A stretch of 64,000 nt of DNA, taken from positions 64,001 through 128,000 of the IMG/VR virus record IMGVR_UViG_3300025707_000003; one strand, written 5' to 3'. The translations under genes were made by a program, and so were the position numbers. The notes below the pieces were generated by a model. It made no database searches. It had not been told where the DNA came from and worked only from the letters and a program-made list of their open reading frames with translations. Shown here piece by piece: positions 5,896-64,000 of the stretch (within the stretch, counting starts at the first letter, position 1; the number at the start of each line of letters is the position of its first letter). This DNA is from a virus (lineage: Duplodnaviria > Caudoviricetes).

Positions 5896-8250
5896 GTGCA
5901 GAATAAAACAAGTAGGATAAGAGTACCTAAACCATTGGTACGAGAGATTGTATCACATATATTCAGCCAAGTAGGTGTCTATAATGACCTCAGTATAAGT
6001 GTCTCAGTACCATCTCCACCGAGAGTTCATAGGTATCTTGCAGACTTAGACTTGAGAGTGGAGATAATACCTCCGAGTGCGTCTAGGAAGTTAGAATTTG
6101 AGGCTAAATACGATCCGACTAACTCTGTCATTTATGTAAATCTACCTTATTTAGAGAGTCGCTACGAAGGTAGAGAACTTGAACAATCTCTCTACAAAGT
6201 AGTCGCTCACGAGCTTGTTCATGTATATCAAATCCTCTATACAAGATCACGAGATAGCGATCCCAATGCAGTAAACCCAACAGCAGGACTTCCTGGTCTT
6301 AGAGAGAGAACTCCACAATATAGGCAAGAAGAAGGCGACATACTTCACCATCGCCTAGACGATAATGAGTTTTACCCACGCTTAGAGGATACGATCAATG
6401 CTATTAAATTTGTACTAAAGAGGAATCCTGGAAAATTAGTTGAAATAGTCTCTTATGTCTTAGGTGAGTCAAGTCGCCCTGTATATAGGTCTAAGCATTT
6501 AAAAGAGCCTATAGAATGGCTCATAGCTTTAGATAGATACGCACCTAGAAAGTTCATCAAAGCTGTAAGGAAGATTAAGAATGAGTTCCCCGAAACAGCT
6601 AAACTTACCCGTCAAGCCGATTTCTTTAGACAGGTTAGCCCACCCGATGAACTGAGTACCTTTAGCAATGGCACACCCACGGGTAAAGGTACAGATCTTG
6701 AAGATAAGGGTGAGGGGTCACAACTGCCTAATGGAGATGGGGCTAGGGACATAGGTCGTCCTAGCCCCGACTCACCGAATCTCAAATCAAGAAATCTTGA
6801 TCGTTCTGAGTCATATGGCAGGAAACCCGCTGAAAAACAAGACTTTGGTTATGTTCATGATAGTGGTAGCGGTAGTGCTAGGGTTATCCCTTATGATAGT
6901 GGTTTTGCGAACAACTCATCTCCTCTGAGAAAAGCATCCTCCAAAGTTAAACCCATGTTTTTAGGGTCTGACGGGTCAGCGATGGCTTATGATTTCTACT
7001 TTATGCGAGTCGAAAAAGACTACTATTATCACTACACATACAGAGATCGTGCTGATGAGATCATTGAAGATGGACATCTAAGACCTAACTTCTACAAAGA
7101 CCAGCCTGGTGCTAAAGGTGTGTTCGCTATTTCTGGATCTTATGGGCAAGTGGTTACGAGTCTTCAAGTCAGTGGTTCTAGGAAAGAACACATGGATAAA
7201 ATCGTAGCTCTCAAGTTTAAGACTAGAACTGAGCCTAAGTATGGATATCCCGAAGAAGTCATTTGGGATAAGCCTGTGAAACTTATTCGACCAGAGATTG
7301 TGGGCGTTTCAAAAGCAGTATCCGATCTGAACCGAAATGAAGACTTGGGAGAGAACTTCAAGGTGTTTTACGACTTCAAGAAGGCAGTCGAGATCAAAAA
7401 AGAACATGGGAAACCTAACGCTAAGTCTAAAACAGCGTCTATTAGTAGGATAGCTCATCGCTATCTTCAAAGTGCCGCCCAACCAGCTCAAGACTTGGCA
7501 GGTGTCAAAACTTGGGTTGATAAAAACCGACAAGACCAAGTTCAAAACGATACCTCTTCTCCAGATAAATCAAGAGAAGATTATGAAGATGGTAAGCCAC
7601 AGAGAGATCGAGTTCTTCCTTTACCAAATGGACACCCCGAAGGTCGAGATGAACAGCGAGTCGGCCCAGGTCAAATAAACTCACCTCCCGATTCTAGTGG
7701 TCAAGGTGGAGCGAACCGTCCAAAGAAAGACCCTAGTGCATTAAATGACCACCCCGATGGAAAAGCGTTACATGAACGACCTAGATCAAGCGGTATGCCT
7801 GGAGATGAGTATGGACACCCTTATATAGACCAATCCACATCTACGGGATTAAAGCGTAGAGTCATGGCTTCCATTGAGAAAATCTCTTATGTGGGAGAAG
7901 ATGACTTTTATGCAGAAGAAGAAGATTTCTATTGGGATATAGAAGATGGTGTGATGGTAAAAAATGCCCTCTTCAGATACAACTTCCGACCCCCAAGAGG
8001 GAATAAGAGACAGCGTTCTCAAAAGGGTCAGGCGAAACGAAAATCTCTAAAGACTAAGCGTAAATATAGAGTAAAATATCGTAGAAACCTCATTAAGCAA
8101 AAGAGGTTATACAAGCGTAAGAAACACAATCCTACTTACAAAAAGTACAAGAAAAACTATGCTAAAAACCCTCAGAAGTACAAGCGTAGACCTGGTGGTG
8201 TCAGCACAGTTAAACAAAAATCTCAAAGAGCAGAAAAAAGGAGAAAGTAA
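5896..8250 (+). CDS. Multidomain probable virion protein: HEXXH metallopeptidase-like region, ART-like region, K/R-rich tail
   Basis: VVAHELVHVYQ (6208-6222); YHYT...IIEDGHLRP...GVFAIS...EEV (7021-7290); basic C-terminus; class I motif at 5854. Confidence 0.6.
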   Translation: MQNKTSRIRVPKPLVREIVSHIFSQVGVYNDLSISVSVPSPPRVHRYLADLDLRVEIIPPSASRKLEFEAKYDPTNSVIYVNLPYLESRYEGRELEQSLYKVVAHELVHVYQILYTRSRDSDPNAVNPTAGLPGLRERTPQYRQEEGDILHHRLDDNEFYPRLEDTINAIKFVLKRNPGKLVEIVSYVLGESSRPVYRSKHLKEPIEWLIALDRYAPRKFIKAVRKIKNEFPETAKLTRQADFFRQVSPPDELSTFSNGTPTGKGTDLEDKGEGSQLPNGDGARDIGRPSPDSPNLKSRNLDRSESYGRKPAEKQDFGYVHDSGSGSARVIPYDSGFANNSSPLRKASSKVKPMFLGSDGSAMAYDFYFMRVEKDYYYHYTYRDRADEIIEDGHLRPNFYKDQPGAKGVFAISGSYGQVVTSLQVSGSRKEHMDKIVALKFKTRTEPKYGYPEEVIWDKPVKLIRPEIVGVSKAVSDLNRNEDLGENFKVFYDFKKAVEIKKEHGKPNAKSKTASISRIAHRYLQSAAQPAQDLAGVKTWVDKNRQDQVQNDTSSPDKSREDYEDGKPQRDRVLPLPNGHPEGRDEQRVGPGQINSPPDSSGQGGANRPKKDPSALNDHPDGKALHERPRSSGMPGDEYGHPYIDQSTSTGLKRRVMASIEKISYVGEDDFYAEEEDFYWDIEDGVMVKNALFRYNFRPPRGNKRQRSQKGQAKRKSLKTKRKYRVKYRRNLIKQKRLYKRKKHNPTYKKYKKNYAKNPQKYKRRPGGVSTVKQKSQRAEKRRK

Positions 8251-8252
8251 CT

Positions 8253-9317
8253 ATGAGTGATTTCTTATCCGAAGAATTGTTTGCAGAGGAATTATCTGCC
8301 GAAGAGTTATTAGCTGGTCGAGCTAGACGAAAGACCAAGTATAAAATCAAACGCAGAAGGCGTATGAAAACTAGAACTAAGTCTTTACGCAAGAGAAACA
8401 CTAATGTGTCTCAAAAGCGTCAAAACAGAAAGAAGTATAAAAAGCGTATGAAGACGGACTCTAACTACAGGAAAAATCGTAAAGACTATCGTAAGCAGTA
8501 CTACAAGAAGAACAAGAGGGGTTCTATCGGGTATAGTTTGCCCTTTGGATTAGAATTCTTATATCAAGGAATACCTGCTTATCTTATGTCTCTTTCTGAG
8601 ATGTTTGATGCGGTCAATATCTATGTTGAAGGTGAAACTGCAATCTTAGTTGACCTCAATCATTTCTTAGATAACACTGAATGGTATGAAGAAGATGATG
8701 CTAACCTTTTCATCGATTTGATAGAGGAATCTTATGCTGTTTTAGAGGAAGATCCAGAGGATGCTTGGTCTGAGTATACCCTTGATGAGCGAGATCCCCC
8801 TGCCAAGTCTAATATAGATAAGAAATCTTCGAGGGCTACTGATATTTGTGATCGGACAGATAACCTTGCACTTCTTCAGATGCTCCTAGCTGTTCTTCGT
8901 GGTGCTCATTTTGCTCATTGGACTAGTCACTGGCAGGTTAAAGGCTCAAACTTCTATGGTGATCATGAAATGATGGATAACATTTACAGTACCCTCATTG
9001 AAGAAATCGACACCCTTGCAGAGAAGATTGTTGGTACATACGGTGGGGAAGCCGTTAATATGGTCGAACAGTCCCAACTAATGGCTAATCAGCTTTTACC
9101 TCTAGCCGAAGCACATAGCATGAATAACCCTATTCGTAGAGCCTTGCTGATTGAGGAGGGTTTACAGGTCATCTTTAGGAACACTTATGATATGCTCAAG
9201 GAACAAGGCGGTCTTACTTTAGGTATGGACGATTTTATTATGTCTATGGCTAACACACACGAGACTAACCTTTACCTTTTAAGACAGAGATGCGATACTC
9301 GACCAAAGATTAATTGA
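8253..9317 (+). CDS. K/R-rich N-terminus fused to Dps/ferritin-like domain
   Basis: HWTSHWQVKGSNFYGDHEMMDNIYSTLIEEIDTLAEKI matches the Dps ferroxidase helix pattern. Confidence 0.7.
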   Translation: MSDFLSEELFAEELSAEELLAGRARRKTKYKIKRRRRMKTRTKSLRKRNTNVSQKRQNRKKYKKRMKTDSNYRKNRKDYRKQYYKKNKRGSIGYSLPFGLEFLYQGIPAYLMSLSEMFDAVNIYVEGETAILVDLNHFLDNTEWYEEDDANLFIDLIEESYAVLEEDPEDAWSEYTLDERDPPAKSNIDKKSSRATDICDRTDNLALLQMLLAVLRGAHFAHWTSHWQVKGSNFYGDHEMMDNIYSTLIEEIDTLAEKIVGTYGGEAVNMVEQSQLMANQLLPLAEAHSMNNPIRRALLIEEGLQVIFRNTYDMLKEQGGLTLGMDDFIMSMANTHETNLYLLRQRCDTRPKIN

Positions 9318-20261: not shown

Positions 20262-21707
20262 ATGGCATTTTTAAGATATGCTAGGGCTAATGTAGTACAG
20301 CCCTCTATTCATGGTCTACAATGGGATAAAGTTAGAATCGCTTCTGGTGATAAAACCATCAATGCCTCGCTCAAAAAGCAAGCTGAGGATATTCTAGGCG
20401 AACCTTTCACTCCCGATAGATTTCTACTTACACACTCCACAATCGTTTGTTCTGTCGATGCTTTCACGCCTCCTAATACAAAGACAGGCTCGATCACTGA
20501 GGGTGGGCAAACCATTAACCGTAAATATGCTGACTATCGTATAAGTTCAGATACAGATAAGTTCATCAATAACAACCTCGACTCATGGTCAAGGGAAGTG
20601 ATCAAGAAGTCTTATCCGACTTTCATTGGTGCTCATAACTTTGTTGAGCATATCCAAGTAGAAGAACTCTCAAAAGGTCGCATTATAGATGCAGTCCTTA
20701 GAGACATAGGTGAATCTCTATATGTAGACATCCTTGTCGCCACTGATCGTAAGCATGAAGACTTAGTAAAACAGATCGAGTCGGGTCAAATGAACGCAAT
20801 GTCTATGGGATGTAGCGTAGACTTTACCATTTGTACTAAATGTGGTCATGTAGCCGCTGATGAAACAGAGATGTGTTCTCATGTTAAATATGAGAAGGGC
20901 AATGTTTTCTATGATGAGCAAGGAAATCAGCATAGAGTAGCAGAGCTTTGTGGGCATGAAGATATTGGTGGCACAGCAGGTGTTACCTTCATTGAGGCTT
21001 CTTGGGTCGCAACTCCTGCATTTACAGGAGCTGTTGCTCGAAACACATTAGAGATACCCTCTGCTGATATGGCAAAATCTGCTTCGGATGTGGAACTAAA
21101 TGAAGTCCCCGAAAAGTGGATCGCCAAAGCCTCTAGCTTACAAAGTTCTCCTTGGTATGACCCTCATGGTCAACTAACTAAAAAGGCTGGCCCTTTTGAT
21201 ATGGATGAGGATGAAGAAGAAGGTGGAGGCGATGACGCTTCAACCCCTTCAGAGTCTTTGCTCAAACAATTAGAATCTGTGTATGAGACTGCTATTGTAG
21301 ATCGTTTTCGTAAAAAACTAGAGAACGAGATCAAAGCAGAAAAAGCTCAAGAAGTTATGAACCCCCCAATAGATAAATCTGTCGTTGAGCAAAATGATAC
21401 GATTATCAAAGAGGGAGTTTCTGCTTCTAAATATATGAGTCTCTTAGATGCTTCTGTTAAAACAGCTAAAACTGTTGAAGAAGCTGTCTTGAACATTACT
21501 TTGGTAAACAACCATTGTAAAGTTCATGTCCCGACCCATGTTTATAAGTTGGCTAGTGTTCTAGGTACAACAACACAATATAATAGTGTTGTTGATTATC
21601 TTGAGCAAGCCAACTACTTAAACGGTAAAAAATTATCGAAGCAAGACACTCTTCGTCTTGTAAGATTAGCTAAACTGTTATCCCTTAACACTTACGGGCA
21701 GAAATAA
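20262..21707 (+). CDS. Prohead (head maturation) protease with Zn-binding insert
   Basis: HNFVEH, MSMGCSVDFTICTKCG...CSH, FIEASWVATPAF match the HK97/assemblin-type protease pattern; directly upstream of scaffold and capsid genes. Confidence 0.75.
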   Translation: MAFLRYARANVVQPSIHGLQWDKVRIASGDKTINASLKKQAEDILGEPFTPDRFLLTHSTIVCSVDAFTPPNTKTGSITEGGQTINRKYADYRISSDTDKFINNNLDSWSREVIKKSYPTFIGAHNFVEHIQVEELSKGRIIDAVLRDIGESLYVDILVATDRKHEDLVKQIESGQMNAMSMGCSVDFTICTKCGHVAADETEMCSHVKYEKGNVFYDEQGNQHRVAELCGHEDIGGTAGVTFIEASWVATPAFTGAVARNTLEIPSADMAKSASDVELNEVPEKWIAKASSLQSSPWYDPHGQLTKKAGPFDMDEDEEEGGGDDASTPSESLLKQLESVYETAIVDRFRKKLENEIKAEKAQEVMNPPIDKSVVEQNDTIIKEGVSASKYMSLLDASVKTAKTVEEAVLNITLVNNHCKVHVPTHVYKLASVLGTTTQYNSVVDYLEQANYLNGKKLSKQDTLRLVRLAKLLSLNTYGQK

Positions 21708-25135: not shown

Positions 25136-25621
25136 ATGAACAACAATTTTGTTCCAGTTCCCACAGTAATGGAAGCCATGACAGGTTTCCTCTGTAGTAA
25201 GGCTTTTCTTATCTATCTAATTATATTTGGTGTTCTATTTTTTATATGGCTTTTTATCAAAAAAGAGAGGAGAGAAGAAGCTGATCTCTATCGAGCATTA
25301 GTGAGAGAAGTGAGAGAAAACCAAAATCTTAAGCGAAGACTAGGACAGACACCAAATGAAGAGCAAGATGATATGTACTCCAACGAGGTACTCACCTCGT
25401 CATATGATTTATGCGAATCATATACCAAAGATATCAAATGGAGAAACGCAGGTCTCAGACATGATATAAAAATACTAAACATCGAGGATAAAGAGACACT
25501 ATTGAAAGCGAAGGCTCTACTTTTGTACTTAACTACCTCGGAGAAACAAACCCCACAATTTATTGAGGGTGTTCAGAAAACGCTCAAGGTTATTACGATC
25601 CTAGAAAAGAGTGTAAGATGA
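25136..25621 (+). CDS. Membrane-anchored hypothetical protein
   Basis: N-terminal TM FLIYLIIFGVLFFIWLFI. Confidence 0.65.
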   Translation: MNNNFVPVPTVMEAMTGFLCSKAFLIYLIIFGVLFFIWLFIKKERREEADLYRALVREVRENQNLKRRLGQTPNEEQDDMYSNEVLTSSYDLCESYTKDIKWRNAGLRHDIKILNIEDKETLLKAKALLLYLTTSEKQTPQFIEGVQKTLKVITILEKSVR

Positions 25622-26529
25622 GAGCGATACCATGCCCTATATCTAAAGAGCGTTTTGAAGACCTCTATACTAAACAATACTTAACAGAGAAGCAGATTAA
25701 CGAGTTGTTGATTTCTGAGGGTATTGACTCAAGCATGAAGCGTATTGGTAGTTGGAGACTACGCTATGGGATTGAAACGGTATCTAAGTTTGATCGTCTT
25801 GAGCTACCAAAGATTGAGGGGGAGTTAAGATCAATCCTTATTGGTTCTATGCTAGGTGACGGTCGTATTGTTTTTCGTACTAACGCTTCACACTATGAGG
25901 AACGACACGCACCCAATCAGAAAGAGTATCTTGAGTGGAAGCAAGAGAAGTGGGGCGTGTGGTCATCTGGAGATTTAGCAGTAGCGATGAGTAGGGAGTT
26001 CCCTAGTTATATCTTTCGCACCCACGCTCACCCTATGCTAAATGAGTATCGAGACTTGTTCTATGAGGAGAGGGATAAGGGGTGGAAAGTTGTTAAGTCT
26101 GATGTTATAGACCAAGTAGATGAGTTAGCTTTGGCTATGTGGTATCTCGATGATGGTCATGCAGGACATTGGCCTATGATTTGTTTTGGGGCAAAACAGG
26201 GGAGTCGAGCTAACGCTTACTTAATCTTTGAGAAGTTTGGTTTAGCCCCTAACTGGACACATAAAAAAGGGGAGACAGGAGAGTTCCACTTTAAGGGTGA
26301 GAACGCTTATCGTTTCATTGAGATCATTAAGCCTCATGTACCCGATTGTATGTCTTACAAGTTGGACTTTGGTTTTCAAGGTCGTAACAATGCTATCAAG
26401 AAAAAGATGGACAAAGGCATCTTAGAGGACTTAAGGAGTAAGGGGTGGGGTAAGCGTAGGATAGCTAGGTATCTTGATGTAGGGGCGAGTACAGTGGGTC
26501 GTTGGATGGTTAAGTTTGGAGTGGAGTGA
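25618..26529 (+). mobile_element. Free-standing LAGLIDADG homing endonuclease with terminal HTH
   Basis: ILIGSMLGDG and ALAMWYLDDG motifs. Confidence 0.85.
26474..26529 (+). repeat. Endonuclease 3'-end repeat, copy A
   Basis: 56 nt, 3 mismatches to 26942-26997; 34-nt core identical at 27583-27616. Confidence 0.95.
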
Positions 26530-26538
26530 GGACTTTGA

Positions 26539-26550
26539 TAGTTTATTTAT
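26539..26550 (+). promoter_or_regulatory. Class I motif plus cassette module
   Basis: Exact consensus. Confidence 0.75.
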
Positions 26551-26600
26551 AATAGATCTTAAGTGATCTCTTTAACCAAGAATCCAAATGGAGAAACATT

Positions 26601-26915
26601 ATGCGTAGATCAGCATCAGAAATCATCAATAACCTTGAGAATAGGGTTGCACGACTTGAATCAAGTTCTAACCCTCGTCAAGCTAAAGATGCTTATGATA
26701 TTTGGAGAAGGAAAGTAGATCAGTACATCATTAAGGAAATGCGGGTCACTTTTGAATACGAAACAAAAGACGGTGAACACTCCGAAGACTATATAAACAG
26801 TCTTTGGCAAGATGGAGTTAAGCCATCACGAGCCTCCAAAAATATCATGCAGAAATTTCAATGGTTAAAGTCAGCGGGTATGCTAAAGCATCATAAATAT
26901 TATGATGCTATTTGA
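26601..26915 (+). CDS. Leader-tagged hypothetical protein
   Basis: MRRSASEIINNLENRVARLE; full upstream module. Confidence 0.8.
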   Translation: MRRSASEIINNLENRVARLESSSNPRQAKDAYDIWRRKVDQYIIKEMRVTFEYETKDGEHSEDYINSLWQDGVKPSRASKNIMQKFQWLKSAGMLKHHKYYDAI

Positions 26916-26941
26916 ATGGTTATTGAAAGGGATCTAGGGAT

Positions 26942-26997
26942 TTGATGTAGGGGCGAGTACAGTGAGTCGTTGGATGGTTAAGTTTGGGGTGGATTGA
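26942..26997 (+). repeat. Endonuclease 3'-end repeat, copy B
   Basis: ttgatgtaggggcgagtacagtgagtcgttggatggttaagtttggggtggattga. Confidence 0.95.
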
Positions 26998-27001
26998 TTT
27001 G

Positions 27002-27013
27002 TAGTTTATTTAT
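27002..27013 (+). promoter_or_regulatory. Class I motif
   Basis: Exact consensus upstream of OMP-like gene. Confidence 0.75.
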
Positions 27014-27044
27014 TAGTGTCTATTATCCATAAAGGAGAGACACC

Positions 27045-27575
27045 ATGAGACTTACTATCGCTTTACTCTTATCTGTCTTGCTCACCTCTACGATTTCTCA
27101 CGCTGAAGAGAATAACTGGGAAGTGAGTCTAGGCACAACGCAAATGTTCATCGGTGGGTACGAAGAGGGTTCAATACCTGTACCTACGAACTCTGCCACA
27201 TTCATCTTATCTCGTAAGATGTATGAGAGCTTTGCATTATGGGTTGTGTTCAATCTACCTACCTCCTCTAACAAAAGGTTTACAGAGGAAGGTTTACTTG
27301 TAGAGTCTCAGACACCACCTAGTCTTATGCTAGGTGCGAGTTATGAGTTATTGGGCTATGAGATCTCCGACAAGAAATCTTTAGGTCTTGATGTTGGTGC
27401 TTCAGTCGGACACACGATTACGCTTAATGGTCAGTTCTTCCCTGTGGGTGCGTTTCGTTTGAAGTTCGTTAAAGACGAGGACAGCACTATGTATGCAGGG
27501 GTGACAACCTCACCATATAATCCAGATGGTGATTTGGTTTGGGGTTTGATCTATGGCATGGGGTATAGATTTTAA
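27045..27575 (+). CDS. Outer-membrane beta-barrel-like secreted protein
   Basis: Signal peptide ending SHA|EE, alternating beta strands, C-terminal beta-signal YGMGYRF. Confidence 0.6.
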   Translation: MRLTIALLLSVLLTSTISHAEENNWEVSLGTTQMFIGGYEEGSIPVPTNSATFILSRKMYESFALWVVFNLPTSSNKRFTEEGLLVESQTPPSLMLGASYELLGYEISDKKSLGLDVGASVGHTITLNGQFFPVGAFRLKFVKDEDSTMYAGVTTSPYNPDGDLVWGLIYGMGYRF

Positions 27576-27582
27576 TGTGAGT

Positions 27583-27616
27583 GCGAGTACAGTGGGTCGT
27601 TGGATGGTTAAGTTTG
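27583..27616 (+). repeat. Endonuclease 3'-end repeat, copy C
   Basis: gcgagtacagtgggtcgttggatggttaagtttg identical to 26485-26518. Confidence 0.95.
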
Positions 27617-27624
27617 AGGTTTTG

Positions 27625-27636
27625 TAGTTTCTTTAT
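27625..27636 (+). promoter_or_regulatory. Class I variant plus cassette module
   Basis: TAGTTTCTTTAT. Confidence 0.7.
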
Positions 27637-56689: not shown

Positions 56690-57601
56690 ATGAGAAGACT
56701 AGCTTCGGAAATACTTAAAGATTTAGAACTAAGGGTAGCTCACCTTGAAAGTGGCTTTCAAGGTGAGTTGAGGAAATCTATTGAGGTTGTCATCGAAAAT
56801 ACTCCCTCAAATATAAGAATTGATCGAGTAGAGTTTCCCAGAACACAGGAAGAGTTTTTAGAGATAGAGGCAAATAATGTGCCCGTTATTTTTTACAACT
56901 GCCCACTTGGAACAAACATGGTCAACCGATTGGAACTGTTCAAGTCTGATTTTAATCCTATGGTAGAGTCTAGGCTTGCAGATAGGAATAAGAAAGACAT
57001 TGGTGGTTTGCTAGAGATTAGTCTCCAAGACCTCTTAAGATCAAACTTTGAGAGGGGTTCTCGATATGTAGGGAAGCACCGTCTGAATACGAGGGCTTTG
57101 AAAAAACTGCTAGGGGTTAATCTTTATGGTAAGGGTCAGATTTTAGAGGGTATGGGAATAAACTCTGCAAATATGTGGTGTGGACCTAAAGGGTGCGTCA
57201 CCCCCCTCCACCTTGATACAATCAACAACTTAGCATGGAATGTGTACGGGCAAAAGACATGGTTCTTGGTAAGTCCAGAGGATATGTACCACAAGGCTTA
57301 CTTAGAATCATTCAAAGAGCCTTATGAAGAGGACTATAAGGGTGATTGGACTAGGAACGATAATGGTCGATCTCCTACCTTTTCAAAGATGACAGAGAAC
57401 CCATTAAAGAGCTTTAATCATTTCCCTATGTCTAGGGGTATAAAGTTCCATAAGGTCGTGTTCAGAGAAAATGAAATGCTGTATCTTCCCGCTTATTGGG
57501 GACACTATGTTAATACTGACTCCGACTCTTTAATGATTAACCATTGGTACGATGAGGTGCCTATAATCCTTAGCTCAACAAGAGTGAAAGGCAATTTGTA
57601 G
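56690..57601 (+). CDS. Leader-tagged JmjC/cupin-8 2OG-Fe(II) oxygenase
   Basis: MRRLASEILKDLELRVAHLE; MWCGPKGCVTPLHLD...GQKTW...LYLPAYWGHYV (HxD...H intact). Confidence 0.85.
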   Translation: MRRLASEILKDLELRVAHLESGFQGELRKSIEVVIENTPSNIRIDRVEFPRTQEEFLEIEANNVPVIFYNCPLGTNMVNRLELFKSDFNPMVESRLADRNKKDIGGLLEISLQDLLRSNFERGSRYVGKHRLNTRALKKLLGVNLYGKGQILEGMGINSANMWCGPKGCVTPLHLDTINNLAWNVYGQKTWFLVSPEDMYHKAYLESFKEPYEEDYKGDWTRNDNGRSPTFSKMTENPLKSFNHFPMSRGIKFHKVVFRENEMLYLPAYWGHYVNTDSDSLMINHWYDEVPIILSSTRVKGNL

Positions 57602-57610
57602 TTCGTTTAT
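57599..57610 (+). promoter_or_regulatory. Class I variant
   Basis: TAGTTCGTTTAT overlapping JmjC TAG stop. Confidence 0.6.
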
Positions 57611-57649
57611 CGCTTCTCCATAGATGATCTACACAATGGAGAATAAAAA

Positions 57650-58000
57650 ATGGCTACAGAGAAATCACAAGACCCAACACAGCTTGATAAACTACCACTT
57701 AAGAGCAAGAAGTTCCTTGCTTATCTGATCGCAGACATCGGGTGGAAAATCCTTATGTTCTATGTGATTTGGGAGTATCAAACTAAGATTGAGCATTATG
57801 CGTTTATGGTTCTCGTCACTATGATCGTAACAAGCGGTTTTATACAGATCGGGTATATCTTAGGTCAAGCCGCTCTTGATAAGTACACTACAGTGGCTGT
57901 CTCGGCTCTTGAGAGAGATGGGGATAAACCTACCCCACCTAAACCAAAGGCTAAAGAAGAACCCGACCCTAATAGCACAGACCCTAACGAGTTCATGTAA
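57650..58000 (+). CDS. Two-TM membrane protein, holin-like
   Basis: Two hydrophobic segments and charged Pro-rich tail; class I motif 57599. Confidence 0.5.
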   Translation: MATEKSQDPTQLDKLPLKSKKFLAYLIADIGWKILMFYVIWEYQTKIEHYAFMVLVTMIVTSGFIQIGYILGQAALDKYTTVAVSALERDGDKPTPPKPKAKEEPDPNSTDPNEFM

Positions 58001-58012
58001 TAGTTTATTTAT
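58001..58012 (+). promoter_or_regulatory. Class I motif plus cassette module
   Basis: Exact consensus. Confidence 0.75.
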
Positions 58013-58059
58013 GAGTGATCTTAAGTGATCTCATTAACCTTAACAAAATGGAGAAAACC

Positions 58060-58728
58060 ATGAGAAGATCAGCAACCGAAGTTATTAAAAACCTTGAGCG
58101 TAGAATCGCAAGGCTCGAAGGAAATATAAACACTCGAAAGACCGCAAGGGGAGATGTCGCTATCGAGACCGCTTCCGAGCGAGACATACAGAAGGCTTGG
58201 CCTAGAGTCACCTATAAAGGCAAAAGCATCCACGCAGACTACAGCAAATGGACTAACTCGGTCGAGAGTTCAGAACTTAGCGAGTATACTGATATTGGTT
58301 TGACGGATGATCTGGGTAATTCTCTGGAAGTTGCAGAAGGTGGACAAGAGGTTTATCTTGGATACAACCAAGAAAAAGATTTCTTTGTGATGGGCTTTGA
58401 TATGAGTTTCTATTCACAAGTAACAGAAGATGAGTGGGATGCTCATGCTGATGCCATGTCCAAATATGAGGACGCAAAGTTTGAAGCGGAGGAATGGAAT
58501 GAGGATGAGCCTGAGCCTTGGGACTTTGAAGGATATAATGAGGACTTTGAGAATGTCGAAGATCCTCGTCATAATGGTCACAGAGGTTGGGCGGCAGTAC
58601 TTTTTAGGGTTGAGAATGGTCGGATTAAGACAGAAGACCCTAAGTTCGGTACTAGTCTTTTTTATGAGATGGATGTACACAAGGGACTTAAGCGTAAGTT
58701 TAATCTCGTTGACCTTCGATTGGGATAA
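58060..58728 (+). CDS. Leader-tagged acidic hypothetical protein
   Basis: MRRSATEVIKNLERRIARLE; full upstream module. Confidence 0.8.
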   Translation: MRRSATEVIKNLERRIARLEGNINTRKTARGDVAIETASERDIQKAWPRVTYKGKSIHADYSKWTNSVESSELSEYTDIGLTDDLGNSLEVAEGGQEVYLGYNQEKDFFVMGFDMSFYSQVTEDEWDAHADAMSKYEDAKFEAEEWNEDEPEPWDFEGYNEDFENVEDPRHNGHRGWAAVLFRVENGRIKTEDPKFGTSLFYEMDVHKGLKRKFNLVDLRLG

Positions 58729-58837
58729 ACCTACCCTCAAACTCTAATAATGTTAGTTATACTCGTTATTAAGTCATCTATTAAAGGTTAAATGACTTAC
58801 TCCTATATGAGTGAACCTCATATCTAGGAGTAAGAAC

Positions 58838-59044
58838 ATGAGTGCTAAATCCTTTGAAGAAGCCGTAAGAACAACTCAACCTGTCATTTATGTAGGAGTT
58901 GAGCGTCAAGAGGCTAAGGGCTTCAATAAAGTAGTCCTCATACAAGAGAATAAAGAAGGGCTACAGACAACCGAACACCACATGACAGGTGATGTCTCTG
59001 TTCAAATGGTGAATGGTGTCTTAAAGGTTTATGTGAAAAGCTAA
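58838..59044 (+). CDS. Hypothetical protein
   Basis: Start reassigned after aggag. Confidence 0.55.
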   Translation: MSAKSFEEAVRTTQPVIYVGVERQEAKGFNKVVLIQENKEGLQTTEHHMTGDVSVQMVNGVLKVYVKS

Positions 59045-59081
59045 AGCAGATCTGCCGCTATGTCAGATGTGTGTAAACTCA
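59041..59081 (-). repeat. Non-coding remnant of a phoH 3' end
   Basis: Reads SLH-T-SDIAADLL* vs phoH SLHKSERSTL-SDIAADLL*; five nt differences in the last 27 nt, all synonymous. Confidence 0.85.
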
Positions 59082-59516
59082 GATGTGTTCCTCAAGCATT
59101 GCAGGGAGACTCCAGATCTCGTCAGAGATTTTGCCTAACTTACGATCACGAAAGCAGAGTCTTTCCAACTTACTTGCGTCTGCGTGATCCATATCCTCAA
59201 GATCAGTTGTGTACACCCGATAAGAGACCTCAGAGACACCCTCATCATCACAGATGCTAAGATCATTATCGTCACAGATCTGTTTGACCCTAGACTCAAA
59301 CTCATTTTGTAGTTCATCCGCTTCCATAAAATAACGGTGTATGAGAGCATGACTCTCTTCCTCTGACCAAACATCATAAATCCACTCATCAGCATCGAAG
59401 TGTCTGTAAGCGTTGCGACTGAGACCAGCCTTCTTACCAGAGGATTTCGTCTTCTTTTCAAGTCTTGCAATTCTCATTTCAAGGTTATTAATGATTTCTG
59501 TTGCTGATTTTCTCAT
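59079..59516 (-). CDS. Leader-tagged hypothetical protein
   Basis: MRKSATEIINNLEMRIARLE; variant upstream module. Confidence 0.8.
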   Translation of the reverse strand: MRKSATEIINNLEMRIARLEKKTKSSGKKAGLSRNAYRHFDADEWIYDVWSEEESHALIHRYFMEADELQNEFESRVKQICDDNDLSICDDEGVSEVSYRVYTTDLEDMDHADASKLERLCFRDRKLGKISDEIWSLPAMLEEHI

Positions 59517-59564
59517 AAAGGTACTCCATAGGTTTGAGGTTAATAAGATCACTTAATAACGAGA

Positions 59565-59576
59565 ATAGATAAACTA
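59565..59576 (-). promoter_or_regulatory. Class I variant plus variant cassette module
   Basis: TAGTTTATCTAT overlapping phoH TAG stop. Confidence 0.7.
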
Positions 59577-60863
59577 CAAAAGATCTGCGGCAATGTCAGA
59601 TAGCGTAGATCTCTCTGACTTATGTAAACTCACACACGCAAATAAAGGTTGACCCAACATACGCTCAATCACATACACAAGACCATTAGATTGCTTTGTG
59701 AGGTAAGGGTGATCAATCTGATAGGGATCACCTAAGAGAACTACTTTAGTTCCCTCAGCCGCTCTTGTGATGATTGATTTGATTTCATGCTTGGTGAGAT
59801 TCTGAGCTTCGTCAATAATCATAAAGGCTTGTTTAAGTGAGCGACCCCTAATGGAGTGGATTGGTTGGATCTCTATCTGATTCTTTTCAAGGAAACCTTC
59901 TTTAGTACCCATCTCTGCACCCATCGGACCAGCGTCCCACATTGGGTTGATCTGATCTAGGTTGTCAAAAAAGCTCTGCATCCAAGGCTCTAGTTTCTCG
60001 GAGAGAGAACCAGGCAAGAACCCGATGCCTTGACCGACATCAACTACAGGTTTAGAGAGTAGGATACGCTGATATGTATGAGCTTGCTCAAGAGCGGCAG
60101 CTAATGCAAGGAAGGTTTTGCCAGTACCTGCTTTACCTAAGAGACACACCAACTCAATGTCGGGATCTAAAAGAGCATCAAGAGAGGCTCTTTGTTCAAG
60201 ATTTCTAGGTTTGGCTTTTTCGGTACGCACTTTGTCTACATTAAAGAGAGATCCCTCTTTGTGTTGGAAAAGATGTTTTTTCTCACCTGGTGCAACAAAC
60301 CAAACATACTGATTTTCATGGAAATCTTCATCAAACTCATGTGGAAGTCTTACAGCACCTTGCCAATATGACTTAACCAATTGATTCATAAACTTTACAT
60401 CAGGTACAAAACCTTTTAACCCTATACCAGAGAGGGTGTCCAGACTTGTGTCCGAAGTGTAGTCAGAAGAATTAACCCCCACAGATTCACATATGATGCG
60501 TAGGTTGATATCTCTTGAAACGAGAGTCAGATCGTATTCGTCTTTGAGGTGAATAGCAGTTTGTAGAATAAGTAAATCTACATACCTAATCTGATTAGCT
60601 CGGTCTAAAGAACTTATGCTGAGTCCTCCTTCGTGTGATACAACTTTAACCTTATCTTCTGTTTGAAGTTTAAGGATAAGATTAGAGGCTTGACGAGCGA
60701 GATGTGCTACATGAGATTTCTCTCGTTTGGGTGTGTCTTTGAGAACATCAAGCTCCATGATTACATAGATTGGGATGAGGACTTCGGTATCATCTTCAAA
60801 AGAGGTCATAGAGGTAGGATCGTGTATTAACACACTAGTATCTAGCAAAACAGCCTTTGTCAT
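59574..60863 (-). CDS. phoH: PhoH-like ATPase with N-terminal PIN domain
   Basis: VLLDTSVLIHDP, GKAGTGKT, RGRSL, IIDEAQN, GDPYQID. Confidence 0.9.
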   Translation of the reverse strand: MTKAVLLDTSVLIHDPTSMTSFEDDTEVLIPIYVIMELDVLKDTPKREKSHVAHLARQASNLILKLQTEDKVKVVSHEGGLSISSLDRANQIRYVDLLILQTAIHLKDEYDLTLVSRDINLRIICESVGVNSSDYTSDTSLDTLSGIGLKGFVPDVKFMNQLVKSYWQGAVRLPHEFDEDFHENQYVWFVAPGEKKHLFQHKEGSLFNVDKVRTEKAKPRNLEQRASLDALLDPDIELVCLLGKAGTGKTFLALAAALEQAHTYQRILLSKPVVDVGQGIGFLPGSLSEKLEPWMQSFFDNLDQINPMWDAGPMGAEMGTKEGFLEKNQIEIQPIHSIRGRSLKQAFMIIDEAQNLTKHEIKSIITRAAEGTKVVLLGDPYQIDHPYLTKQSNGLVYVIERMLGQPLFACVSLHKSERSTLSDIAADLL

Positions 60864-60922
60864 GTGGACTCCATTCTGAGGGTAATTCTCCTCACCCTAT
60901 AAGCGAAAGGTATCTAAAGAAT

Positions 60923-61372
60923 ATGAAGCAGAAACATATCGAAATCCGAAAACAACAATGCTCTCTAATCGCCTCTGCAAGCACCTGTTGTCGGAGAAAA
61001 GTAGGTTCTGTGATCGTAGACCCACATTCTAATGTTGTTGTTAGTGAAGGATATAATGGACCACCAAGAGGAAGTAGTGGTGCCTTATGTGGTGGGTCTG
61101 ACTGTTTGCGTGATCGGTACAAAGTCAAAAGTGGAACTCAAAATGATGTTGGATGCCATCATGCAGAAATCAACGCAATCTTAAATGCCACTCGAAATGG
61201 TATGTCTACTATGGGTAAGTGGCTCTTCACCTCATGCGATCCATGTCTTATGTGTGCAAAGGCAATTCATCATGCAGGGATTATAAAGGTATATGCTCCT
61301 TTACAAACAGAGGTTCATCAAGAGGGGTTGATGTATTTTAAAAATAATCATGTAGAGACAGAGAGTCTTTAA
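60923..61372 (+). CDS. dCMP deaminase
   Basis: RRKVGSVIV, GYNG.PRG, HAEINA, PCLMC. Confidence 0.9.
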   Translation: MKQKHIEIRKQQCSLIASASTCCRRKVGSVIVDPHSNVVVSEGYNGPPRGSSGALCGGSDCLRDRYKVKSGTQNDVGCHHAEINAILNATRNGMSTMGKWLFTSCDPCLMCAKAIHHAGIIKVYAPLQTEVHQEGLMYFKNNHVETESL

Positions 61373-61384
61373 TAGTTTGTTTAT
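61373..61384 (+). promoter_or_regulatory. Class I variant
   Basis: TAGTTTGTTTAT. Confidence 0.7.
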
Positions 61385-61430
61385 GATACTCGATATGTAG
61401 TGTCAGCTTTTCATTCAAAGGAGATCCTAC

Positions 61431-62492
61431 ATGGACAAAACACAAAGAGAACAACTACTCAAACTCGCTCAGAAAGATCCATCTTTCAAAGCGAAGCTCG
61501 TCAACATTCTTAAAACAGAGAAAATCGCTACTGCACTCAACACTGAAGATGCGGCTGCTTTTGCGGCTTGGGCTAAAATGTCAAACCCACAAGGTATGAG
61601 TGTAAATGAAGTCATTTCATACCTTACTAGAGCAGGTGTTAAAGTACGCCCTCAAGGTGAGTCAAGAGCACCAAATAAAAAAGGGCCTCTTGAGGTAGGT
61701 GAACTTGTAAAAGTTGATCCTTCAAAGTGCATCCACCCCGACAATAAGCGTAATTGTGGTGTGCTTGAGCATACACCAGATAATGAGCAGTATTGTTATG
61801 TCGTTGCTCGAATGGAACCAGCAGACCTTCGTGAACTTTGCACTTACCAAATCTCACCAATCGACACTAAGACTGGAAAAGTTGGAAGTAAGAAATTCGA
61901 GTTCAAAGCAGTTATGCCAGCAAGAGGTATTGCGGGTCTTACCAAGAAACTTGAAAAATCCGAAGCTAAAGGAGATACCACAGCAGTTGATCGTGTGCTT
62001 GGTGAGATGCGTGAAAAAGCTCTTGCACCCCATAATGGACATGGACTTTATCGTGCTTCTTTCAAGGATCTCGCTCACTACAAAAAAGTCATCAGCCAAC
62101 CAAAAGTAGGTGACTTTGTGATGGTATATGAGCGTGGTGGTAAACTCCCTGTGCCTTCTATTCGTAAACAATACGCAGAGAAATCAAATGTTGATCGTAC
62201 ACGCCAAACTCTCCTTAGTGGAGAATTTGATGATCTTGTAGAAGGTGGTCTTTCAGACTACGCTAAGATTTACTATGAGGGTCAAATGAAAGGTGCTGGA
62301 TACAGTCAAAAGGAGGAGTTCTACTTCCTTATGGACACTGTATCTCAAGGATTCACTAATGCTAATCCGACTGTAGGTACTGTGTACTACATCGCTAAAG
62401 CGTCCGATATGCCTTCTGAGAGGGAATGGAAAGATGATCTTCGTGCCCGTCTTAAAGCAGTCGTTGAGGAACACCTCAAAGGAAGCCTCTAA
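61431..62492 (+). CDS. Hypothetical late (probable virion) protein
   Basis: Class I motif 61373; biased codons. Confidence 0.7.
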   Translation: MDKTQREQLLKLAQKDPSFKAKLVNILKTEKIATALNTEDAAAFAAWAKMSNPQGMSVNEVISYLTRAGVKVRPQGESRAPNKKGPLEVGELVKVDPSKCIHPDNKRNCGVLEHTPDNEQYCYVVARMEPADLRELCTYQISPIDTKTGKVGSKKFEFKAVMPARGIAGLTKKLEKSEAKGDTTAVDRVLGEMREKALAPHNGHGLYRASFKDLAHYKKVISQPKVGDFVMVYERGGKLPVPSIRKQYAEKSNVDRTRQTLLSGEFDDLVEGGLSDYAKIYYEGQMKGAGYSQKEEFYFLMDTVSQGFTNANPTVGTVYYIAKASDMPSEREWKDDLRARLKAVVEEHLKGSL

Positions 62493-62559
62493 GACTAGCT
62501 AGTTTTTAATAATCTATTTATACTCTCTCTTTGTATGATTATTAGAAAGAGAGAGTATT

Positions 62560-63177
62560 ATGACAAAGGCGAACCCTAGAGCAGTAGCTGAACGCTATCT
62601 GCTTATAAAGCAAGCTCGTAGGATCACTGCCAGATCAAAGACAGCAGGTAGGGTTAAAACTGCTGGTGAAGTTCGCTTCATTAAAGATCATGGTGATGAT
62701 TCAAATGCGTGGGCTTGGGGACAACACCCACCTAGCCAACGCATTATGGACTCAAACCATATCTTCAATAAAAAGAGCACGAAGAACATAGCTAAAGTTC
62801 TTCGATCTACTTTATCTTCTCTTGGTCATGCGATGAGTGCATACACTACATTCGCTAAGATCAAGTCGAGGGATATTAGCCCCGATGGTAATCTTGGTGG
62901 TCGTGGGTATATCATGGAGATTAAAGCGATTCGTAGACAATATATGAATGTTGTAGAAGCTCTCTCTGCTATGTCTGATACACTCTATGATGAGATTACT
63001 GCTGACCATTGGAAAGTAGAACAGAGTAAAATGCTCAATCAAGTTATGGAAGAGGTTGAGGATATTAAAGATGACCCAGAAGCATGGGCTGTCGAAGTAG
63101 AAGAAGCACCAAAAGACCCAAAAAATGAGGAACTAACTAGAGACTTTAGTTCGCCTCGACCTCGAAAGGATACCTAA
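62560..63177 (+). CDS. Hypothetical late protein rich in K/R-x-A motifs
   Basis: RAVAERYLLIKQARRITARSKTAGRVKTAG. Confidence 0.7.
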   Translation: MTKANPRAVAERYLLIKQARRITARSKTAGRVKTAGEVRFIKDHGDDSNAWAWGQHPPSQRIMDSNHIFNKKSTKNIAKVLRSTLSSLGHAMSAYTTFAKIKSRDISPDGNLGGRGYIMEIKAIRRQYMNVVEALSAMSDTLYDEITADHWKVEQSKMLNQVMEEVEDIKDDPEAWAVEVEEAPKDPKNEELTRDFSSPRPRKDT

Positions 63178-63178
63178 A

Positions 63179-64000
63179 ATGAGTAAGAATAAAAGTCATA
63201 TGCCTAATGGTGGATACACCCTTACTCATGGGTCGAACTATATGATGGATGGATTCCACTTCGACACTGAATATGGTGGAGGACCCCAAGAAAAAGCTCG
63301 GCTACCCGAAGCAAAAGGGTTAGCTGATCTTCCAAGTGGAATGATCCCACTTGACAGTTCTGGTGTCTCGATGATTCCCGATGGAGTAGAACATCAAGCA
63401 GATCTTAATATGGACGAGATCACTCGTGAAGCAACTCAAGATGTGTCTTTAGTAGATCACTCATGGCTCGCTTCACAGCCAGAACCCGACCTAAGTGGTA
63501 TGAACGAGATGGAACAGGTTTATAAAGACCTCGCTGACGGACACATGAATAATGAATCTAATAATCAGCTCAAAGTACTTGAAAAGTCATGGGGTCAAAC
63601 AAGCACTACAGGTCTTGACATTATCCCCAATGAGAATAGACGACACGCTCCATATAGGAATACCTATAGTGATGAGCAATCTAATTTACCTGGTGATGAC
63701 TATCGTGAAGAGATGGAGCGTAACATCCGTAAGCTCGCTTATGGACACCCTATGAATGTCGTACTCTCTGAGGTAGATGAGTCTCAAGTCCTAGAGGTTA
63801 AAATCAAGCTCGCTTCTGAGTACGGTCTACATGGTCGTGTTTATGTTAAAGAAGAACACTTTCCTGGTCTTTTCAATGGTCGGTGGGACGAAGTTATCAA
63901 CAAGCGTTGTGCTACTGCAATGTATATCATCCCTAAAAACAAAGACTGTGCCTTTGATCGCTTCTTAGGTATGCAAGTCGTTAATGAGATCCCTTGGAAA
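63179..64000 (+). CDS. Partial hypothetical protein (runs off right edge)
   Basis: Hand-translated open frame MSKNKSHMPNGGY...VNEIPWK; absent from ORF track. Confidence 0.75.
   Translation, partial: MSKNKSHMPNGGYTLTHGSNYMMDGFHFDTEYGGGPQEKARLPEAKGLADLPSGMIPLDSSGVSMIPDGVEHQADLNMDEITREATQDVSLVDHSWLASQPEPDLSGMNEMEQVYKDLADGHMNNESNNQLKVLEKSWGQTSTTGLDIIPNENRRHAPYRNTYSDEQSNLPGDDYREEMERNIRKLAYGHPMNVVLSEVDESQVLEVKIKLASEYGLHGRVYVKEEHFPGLFNGRWDEVINKRCATAMYIIPKNKDCAFDRFLGMQVVNEIPWK

Follow-up and report, generated by a model that had tools for sequence, protein, structure and literature searches.

Probable gain of a leader-tagged cassette gene behind phoH in an uncultured marine giant phage by recombination within a nine-base core of the phoH 3′ end

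The ancestor of an uncultured marine phage, represented here by a 64,000-nucleotide stretch of DNA (the window), very probably gained a 533-bp module behind its conserved phoH gene by recombination with a relative, in such a way that a non-coding remnant of phoH downstream of the module is native and the tail that phoH uses today is imported. Entry by recombination is indicated by the points at which similarity to relatives breaks, all of which lie in a nine-base core of the phoH end. The features concerned are these:

58838..59044, + strand: small convergent gene, 68 aa, which adjoins phoH in the empty-site relatives (region 97% identical to positions 7263-7548 of the relative L001)
59041..59067, − strand: remnant (right repeat), the probable old phoH 3′ end of the resident phage, non-coding today (26/27 identical to the L001 phoH end)
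59063..59088, − strand: probable older junction within the module, a 10-base direct repeat ACACATCTGA (59063-59072 and 59079-59088) around GTTTAC, which includes tgagtttaca and is the same in the contigs L027-L029
59079..59516, − strand: leader-tagged cassette gene A, 145 aa, with leader MRKSATEIINNLEMRIARLE at about 59457-59516 (open reading frame; homologues P0001-P0006)
59069..59601, strandless: 533-bp segment present in the window and missing from the empty-site relatives, its edges sliding within the nine-base core (L001 alignment and a contig of run X17)
59517..59573, − strand: cassette promoter and 5′ UTR module, 57 bases, TAG TTTATCTAT ... TAAGTGATCT ... TTAACC ... ATGGAG
59574..59600, − strand: working phoH 3′ end (left repeat), its last 18 bases being the probably imported allele ATT GCC ... 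CTT TTG TAG
59593..59601, − strand: left copy of the nine-base core ATCTGACAT, which probably holds the crossover, with copy-specific sequence on either side
59574..60863, − strand: PIN-PhoH fusion gene, 429 aa, the conserved anchor gene (Pfam PhoH 3e-48, PIN_4 5e-23; phrog_2765 5e-90)

The remnant lies 533 bases downstream of the working phoH end on the same strand, 11 bases past the 145-aa open reading frame, and its TAG shares bases with the TAA stop of the convergent 68-aa gene. As a preliminary description of this DNA had pointed out, the remnant duplicates the last 27 bases of phoH with five differences (positions 9, 12, 21, 22 and 24) that are all synonymous and keep the stop, both copies being translated as SDIAADLL*. 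The sole stretch identical between the two repeats is ATCTGACAT, and the bracketing direct repeat as a whole is 27-34 bases long. Upstream of the remnant its reading frame is open for 8 codons and a start is absent. A match of at least 22/27 has a chance probability of ∼1e-5 within 1 kb and of ∼1e-3 when both strands of the whole window are considered. The pattern of differences, for which the preliminary description had suggested an estimate under neutrality, can be given a number by exact count: the probability that five random substitutions would all be synonymous with the stop kept is 4e-4 without transition bias and 1.6e-3 at a kappa of 4. Three of the five differences sit in the last two Leu codons, which overlap the promoter motif (TAG TTTAT...), and promoter selection may shape these differences in addition to coding history.

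A PhoH search in IMG/VR yielded 26 relatives or loci, many of them on contigs of 170-375 kb and therefore from giant phages; the window also encodes a portal, a head maturation protease (20262..21707), a major head protein and a clamp loader. PhoH is at least 92% identical in seven of these loci, six of which (L001 and L003-L007) are empty in that phoH directly adjoins the small convergent gene; in L002 this gene is inverted. The closest of them is L001: its PhoH protein is 99% identical to that of the window, its phoH ends, as a true gene end, in the remnant codons (26/27), and the sequence past its phoH stop is the sequence past the remnant in the window, so that L001 7263-7548 aligns with window 58782-59068 and L001 up to 7283 aligns with the window from 59581. 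The exact remnant 27-mer has no match in IMG/VR; a 21-mer over all five variable sites has one exact occurrence there, in the L001 contig. Because the L001 end matches the remnant and the same small gene follows it, we take the remnant to be the former genuine phoH end of the resident. The allele that the preliminary description had proposed to look for is therefore found, along with the gene that follows it, and its suggestion that one copy was once coding in a diverged relative is borne out. If each tail was still part of a functional gene in its own lineage when the event took place, differences that are only synonymous are what would result. The polarity, which that description had left open, is supported as remnant native and working end imported. 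The small gene itself has only a weak, sub-threshold match to DUF7922 in Pfam and PHROG searches. A hairpin at 58796-58834 (−19.7 kcal/mol, z −5.1) lies immediately upstream of its ATG, carries an AGGAG ribosome-binding site in the 3′ arm and is conserved in L001, L002 and L005. INPHARED phage records gave no DNA match for window 58700-60900.

The foreign character of the working tail emerges from the comparison with L001, in which there is one mismatch in the ∼260 bases before the core and then six in the last 21 bases of phoH. All seven relatives with a phoH identity of at least 92% carry ATA GCG, and the window-type ATT GCC ... CTT TTG is otherwise present only in L009, L010/L011 and L016, in which phoH is 65-71% identical; L010/L011 also share with the window the nine bases past the phoH stop. 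On the side of the cassette, the contigs L027-L029 follow the window at ∼99% identity across phoH and the cassette as far as ...ACACATCTGA and then diverge. Past the break they carry a different, decayed phoH-end copy with two non-synonymous changes and two indels, which resembles the L002-type allele and precedes an L002-type promoter and a further leader gene. The similarity between the window and L001 and that between the window and L027-L029 both break at the same core ATCTGACAT, around which each repeat copy is a resident/donor hybrid. These break points fit the earlier proposal that cassettes are transferred by short homology in the phoH end and leave a hybrid scar. L027-L029 are contigs of 0.8-1.2 kb, and the right-hand homology in their scar comprises only 6 perfect bases (16/18), so a right crossover with such a donor would have been near illegitimate. 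The cassette right junction was not found in JGI metagenome contigs, nor the imported phoH end plus promoter in IMG/VR. Beyond the core, window 59602-63999 is a mosaic relative to L001, with patches of 0-3 mismatches per 100 bases alternating with patches of 20-37 per 100 (e.g. 61302-61501 and 60002-60101), which points to frequent homologous exchange among these phages.

The scar also preserves what seems to be an earlier event. The tgagtttaca match noted in the preliminary description is present at 59072-59081 and 59623-59632, and its TGAGTT part is the 3′ end of the cassette family itself. Distant cassette homologues end natively in ACATCTGAGTT, and tgagtttaca is for that reason best read as an earlier microhomology join (TGAGTT) of the cassette end with phoH that was afterwards shortened by 18 bases. 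The junction made of GTTTAC and ACACATCTGA is common to the window and L027-L029 and is therefore older than the event considered here.

The module consists of the new phoH end, a promoter and a gene with a shared 20-residue leader. About ten open reading frames of the window, and others in the loci of relatives, start with this leader (M-R-R/K-x-A-S/T-E-I/V-...-R-I/V-A-x-L-E), and the motif TAG TTTAT.TAT ... TAAGTGATCT ... TTAACC ... ATGGAG precedes nearly all leader-tagged genes; it is found upstream of eight leader genes in the window and of those in L002, L003 and L027. At its 5′ edge this motif overlaps the final codons of phoH and the TAG, so the foreign tail and the promoter would have come in as a single piece. 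Pfam and PHROG searches with the cassette gene A protein gave no family and an IMG/VR search gave no close relative. The gene is missing in L001 and L003-L007, and a homologue whose protein is 97% identical is present on the three independent ENA contigs L027-L029. Weak snoRNA-like Rfam matches at 59228-59279 were far below the gathering score and were discarded. The homologues P0002-P0005, at ∼250 aa, have an extra ∼105-aa domain that follows the leader and precedes a second leader-like helix (LELIHETEE..ELE); the 145-aa form of the window has the appearance of a deletion from one leader-like segment to the other, or else the long forms look like insertions. The contig of P0002, an 86%-identical long homologue (JGI 3300072015), has a partial gene, the cassette and a convergent 70-aa gene, an order that resembles the window, with 47 bases between genes behind the cassette. 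The L016 phage, whose phoH identity is 65%, encodes at 8188-8919 a 243-aa leader protein in which the cassette-A C-terminal domain (RRFDADEW ... ICxDEGVSE) stands behind a different N-terminal insert, which argues that the cargo domains are themselves shuffled.

Metagenomes from marine and seawater samples contain the stretch in 20 runs, which belong to 13 studies, and in one of these runs, X17, both alleles are assembled. The filled allele is represented by contig record 12, which covers 59005-59625 with 0 differences, and the empty allele by a contig in which the small gene and the remnant position, up to 59068, are followed directly by window 59602-59625. In addition, an X16 contig spans 58757-59236, and the junction of phoH with the module is present in three separate ENA assemblies. 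Some contigs depart from the window at 59479 (loose ends), the same phoH end, promoter and leader being followed there by other cargo, and in further variants cassette A stands behind other upstream sequences (59516 and 59529). A neighbouring site is variable as well:

58001..58781, + strand: second cassette (222-aa leader gene 58060..58728 plus promoter), missing in L001 (gap in the L001 alignment)

X17 and X19 include contigs that lack this cassette, with the 8 bases ATCAGAGA linking 58000 and 58782 as they do in L001. In an X19 contig, the 222-aa cassette and cassette A are connected through their 5′ UTRs (58056 and 59518) on opposite strands, as expected if the 1.46-kb segment between the inverted promoter copies were inverted in some genomes. 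A leader-tagged JmjC/cupin-8 protein (56690-57601, Pfam 3e-20) is encoded in L001 and missing in L002-L004, L006 and L007, with collinearity on both sides.

The following sequence of steps would account for these observations. The ancestor, like present-day L001, would have had a phoH that ended in the remnant codons, tail to tail with the small convergent gene. A co-infecting relative would have donated the module with its foreign phoH 3′ end, conserved promoter and leader gene, the left exchange taking place in phoH and the right exchange in a short phoH-derived scar already present behind the cargo gene of the module. With exchange confined to the core ATCTGACAT, the product would combine the resident phoH body with the imported tail, and its scar would combine the old junction of the module with the resident tail. 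A single reciprocal exchange in the core between a unit (old junction-core-foreign tail-promoter-cassette) and the resident phoH end would likewise give the structure that we see. The route may have been either a linear double crossover in which the donor was L027-like or, as in PeSL shuffling, the single crossover of a small circle, both of which would lead to the same product, and the recombination machinery of the phage itself would probably do the work. The predicted circular or tandem junction was not found in IMG/VR, which contains assembled contigs only and says nothing against circles.

The choice between insertion and deletion rests on the distribution of the two states among relatives, which is unrooted. 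In the reverse polarity the filled state would be ancestral and the L001-type empty sites would have arisen by deletion between the repeats; recombination within the nine-base core would restore precisely a phoH end of the L001 type, PeSL shuffling is modelled as a reversible process and X17 contains filled and empty alleles side by side. We nevertheless consider it unlikely, given that the six empty contigs belong to two sub-lineages (99% and 92% phoH identity) and all have remnant-type codons, whereas the working end of the window matches only relatives at 65-71% phoH identity; moreover, a duplication in the supposed ancestor would still require the same insertion as its explanation. It is very unlikely that the pattern of differences reflects a separate constraint on the remnant, which would then serve the convergent genes as a terminator or RNA element; the preliminary description had itself named a functional RNA as an alternative. 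There is a weak terminator-like hairpin at 59059-59045 on the − strand, with a 5-pair stem and a T-rich tail, and GCAGATCTGC is a 10-base palindrome. The number of terminator-like sites (1 observed versus 1.1 expected from shuffles) is at chance level, however, the fold z-scores are about +0.5 (+0.45 and +0.60), no Rfam family matches the remnant and the scar of L027-L029 has decayed with indels; the 26/27 identity to the L001 coding allele makes such a constraint unnecessary.

Direct repeats bracket the insert and the two known contexts of the module (the window, and L027-L029 taken together) share the nine-base core, features that might also recall a transposition-type target-site duplication, or a site-specific insertion by an integrase, followed by drift. 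This explanation is highly improbable: target-duplication copies begin identical, and the probability that the non-coding copy would then drift only synonymously is ∼1e-3. The left copy here matches a foreign allele. The repeat has no attC-like fold, and Pfam and PHROG searches show no transposase or integrase in or beside the module. Those searches revealed no site-specific recombinase among the module gene and its neighbours in window 56690-62492, where the genes are the 68-aa gene, PhoH, a dCMP deaminase, the JmjC protein and three open reading frames without a family. Two strains might have been joined during assembly at the repeated phoH end, given the metagenomic origin of the window and the presence of several strain variants within single samples; we regard the chance of such a chimera as negligible, since independent contigs, from runs that are not marked as the source of the window, bridge both junctions (X17 across 59005-59625 and X16 across 58757-59236) and the junction of phoH with the module recurs in the three ENA assemblies. 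Gain of the module by recombination with a relative is the reading that we retain.

A comparable footprint is found elsewhere in the window, just downstream of the major head protein region:

26474..27627, + strand: end of a LAGLIDADG endonuclease gene, its last 56 bases repeated at 26942-26997 (95%) and 27572-27627 (80%) (repeat scan)

The gene (25618..26529) encodes 303 aa with a Pfam LAGLIDADG_2 match of 1e-19, and one repeat stands after each of the next two, inserted, genes; the differences between these repeats are not purely synonymous. Each of the three copies of the 56-base end (26474, 26942 and 27572) is followed by a promoter and another gene, and the locus gives the impression that cassettes have been stacked after an endonuclease gene that is itself mobile. 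Two leader genes of L016 are preceded by a repeat unit that extends ∼17 bases into the end of the preceding open reading frame. A pattern scan that included the distant homologue loci L030-L035 from JGI metagenome contigs yielded no phoH-end remnant in them, the matches in L031, L032 and L035 being full-length phoH ends, and L037 and L038, whose cassette homologues follow a RecD2-like helicase gene and a different gene, have no duplicate of the upstream-gene end. We are doubtful that duplicated gene ends serve as working portable homology arms of a cassette-exchange system, with ATCTGACAT as its exchange core. If they did, a unit made of the last codons of the anchor, promoter, leader and cargo could re-enter behind the anchor in phages with a phoH ∼70% identical, and the preferred core ATCTGACAT might indicate a dedicated short-homology or site-specific activity, or mini-circle intermediates.

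The locus offers a natural before/after comparison of gene gain for an uncultured marine giant phage, with both the empty and the filled site known. The crossover is mapped to nine bases, one allele is recognized as donor-type and the other as resident-type, and a single seawater sample contains both site alleles. Its outcome resembles that of the integration of e14 and phage 21 in the 3′ end of E. coli icd, which leaves icd and an icdC pseudogene: in both cases the incoming DNA supplies a new gene end, and the displaced native end stays downstream, non-coding, with mostly synonymous differences. Whereas e14 and phage 21 are whole prophages that use a tyrosine integrase and an att site, the insert here is a single gene, with no integrase and a homology of 9-27 bases. 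Integron cassettes differ in that the remnant lacks an attC-type structure and that window 56690-62492 encodes no integrase.

A further parallel may be found in the Ip loci of T4-type phages. Repoila and colleagues are said to have described in 1994 that hypervariable, unrelated small genes at these loci share an N-terminal leader, the capsid-targeting sequence, and an upstream region. The shared leader and upstream region provide the homology for swapping in T4. Here too, unrelated cargo proteins share an N-terminal leader, other cargo is found behind the same leader (59479) and the window encodes a homologue of the head maturation protease (20262..21707). The leader is, however, unrelated to the T4 capsid-targeting sequence and the cassettes are scattered over many loci; packaging or cleavage of their products would be hypothetical, by analogy with T4.

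The PeSL shuffling of T4-type phages concerns single ORFan genes that vary in presence among close relatives; short repeated motifs bracket them, and the motif left where they join is chimeric (Arbiol et al. 2010, PMC2839356; Comeau et al. 2014, PMC4122927). It proceeds by homologous recombination without a dedicated recombinase, a circular intermediate having been proposed, and its repeat consists of an early promoter and a stem-loop (PMC2839356; PMC4122927). The phoH locus shares with it a cassette that is present or absent among close relatives with an otherwise collinear backbone (L001 and L003-L007; X17), direct repeats on both flanks that are chimeric where the sequences join, and a conserved promoter module before every cassette. 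The bracketing repeat differs, being the coding 3′ end of phoH without a significant fold rather than a promoter and stem-loop; a strong hairpin (z −5.1) precedes only the small convergent gene. The hosts of the two systems differ too, uncultured marine giant phages here and T4-type coliphages there, and mini-circles are hypothetical here. Judged by these analogies, the event is of a known kind that works like PeSL shuffling and T4 Ip swapping and reveals no new mechanism. On this reading, the accessory cassettes of these phages spread via very short homology, the last codons of a conserved gene can act as a homology arm, and the picture drawn from PeSL and the Ip loci is supported and extended past T4-type coliphages.
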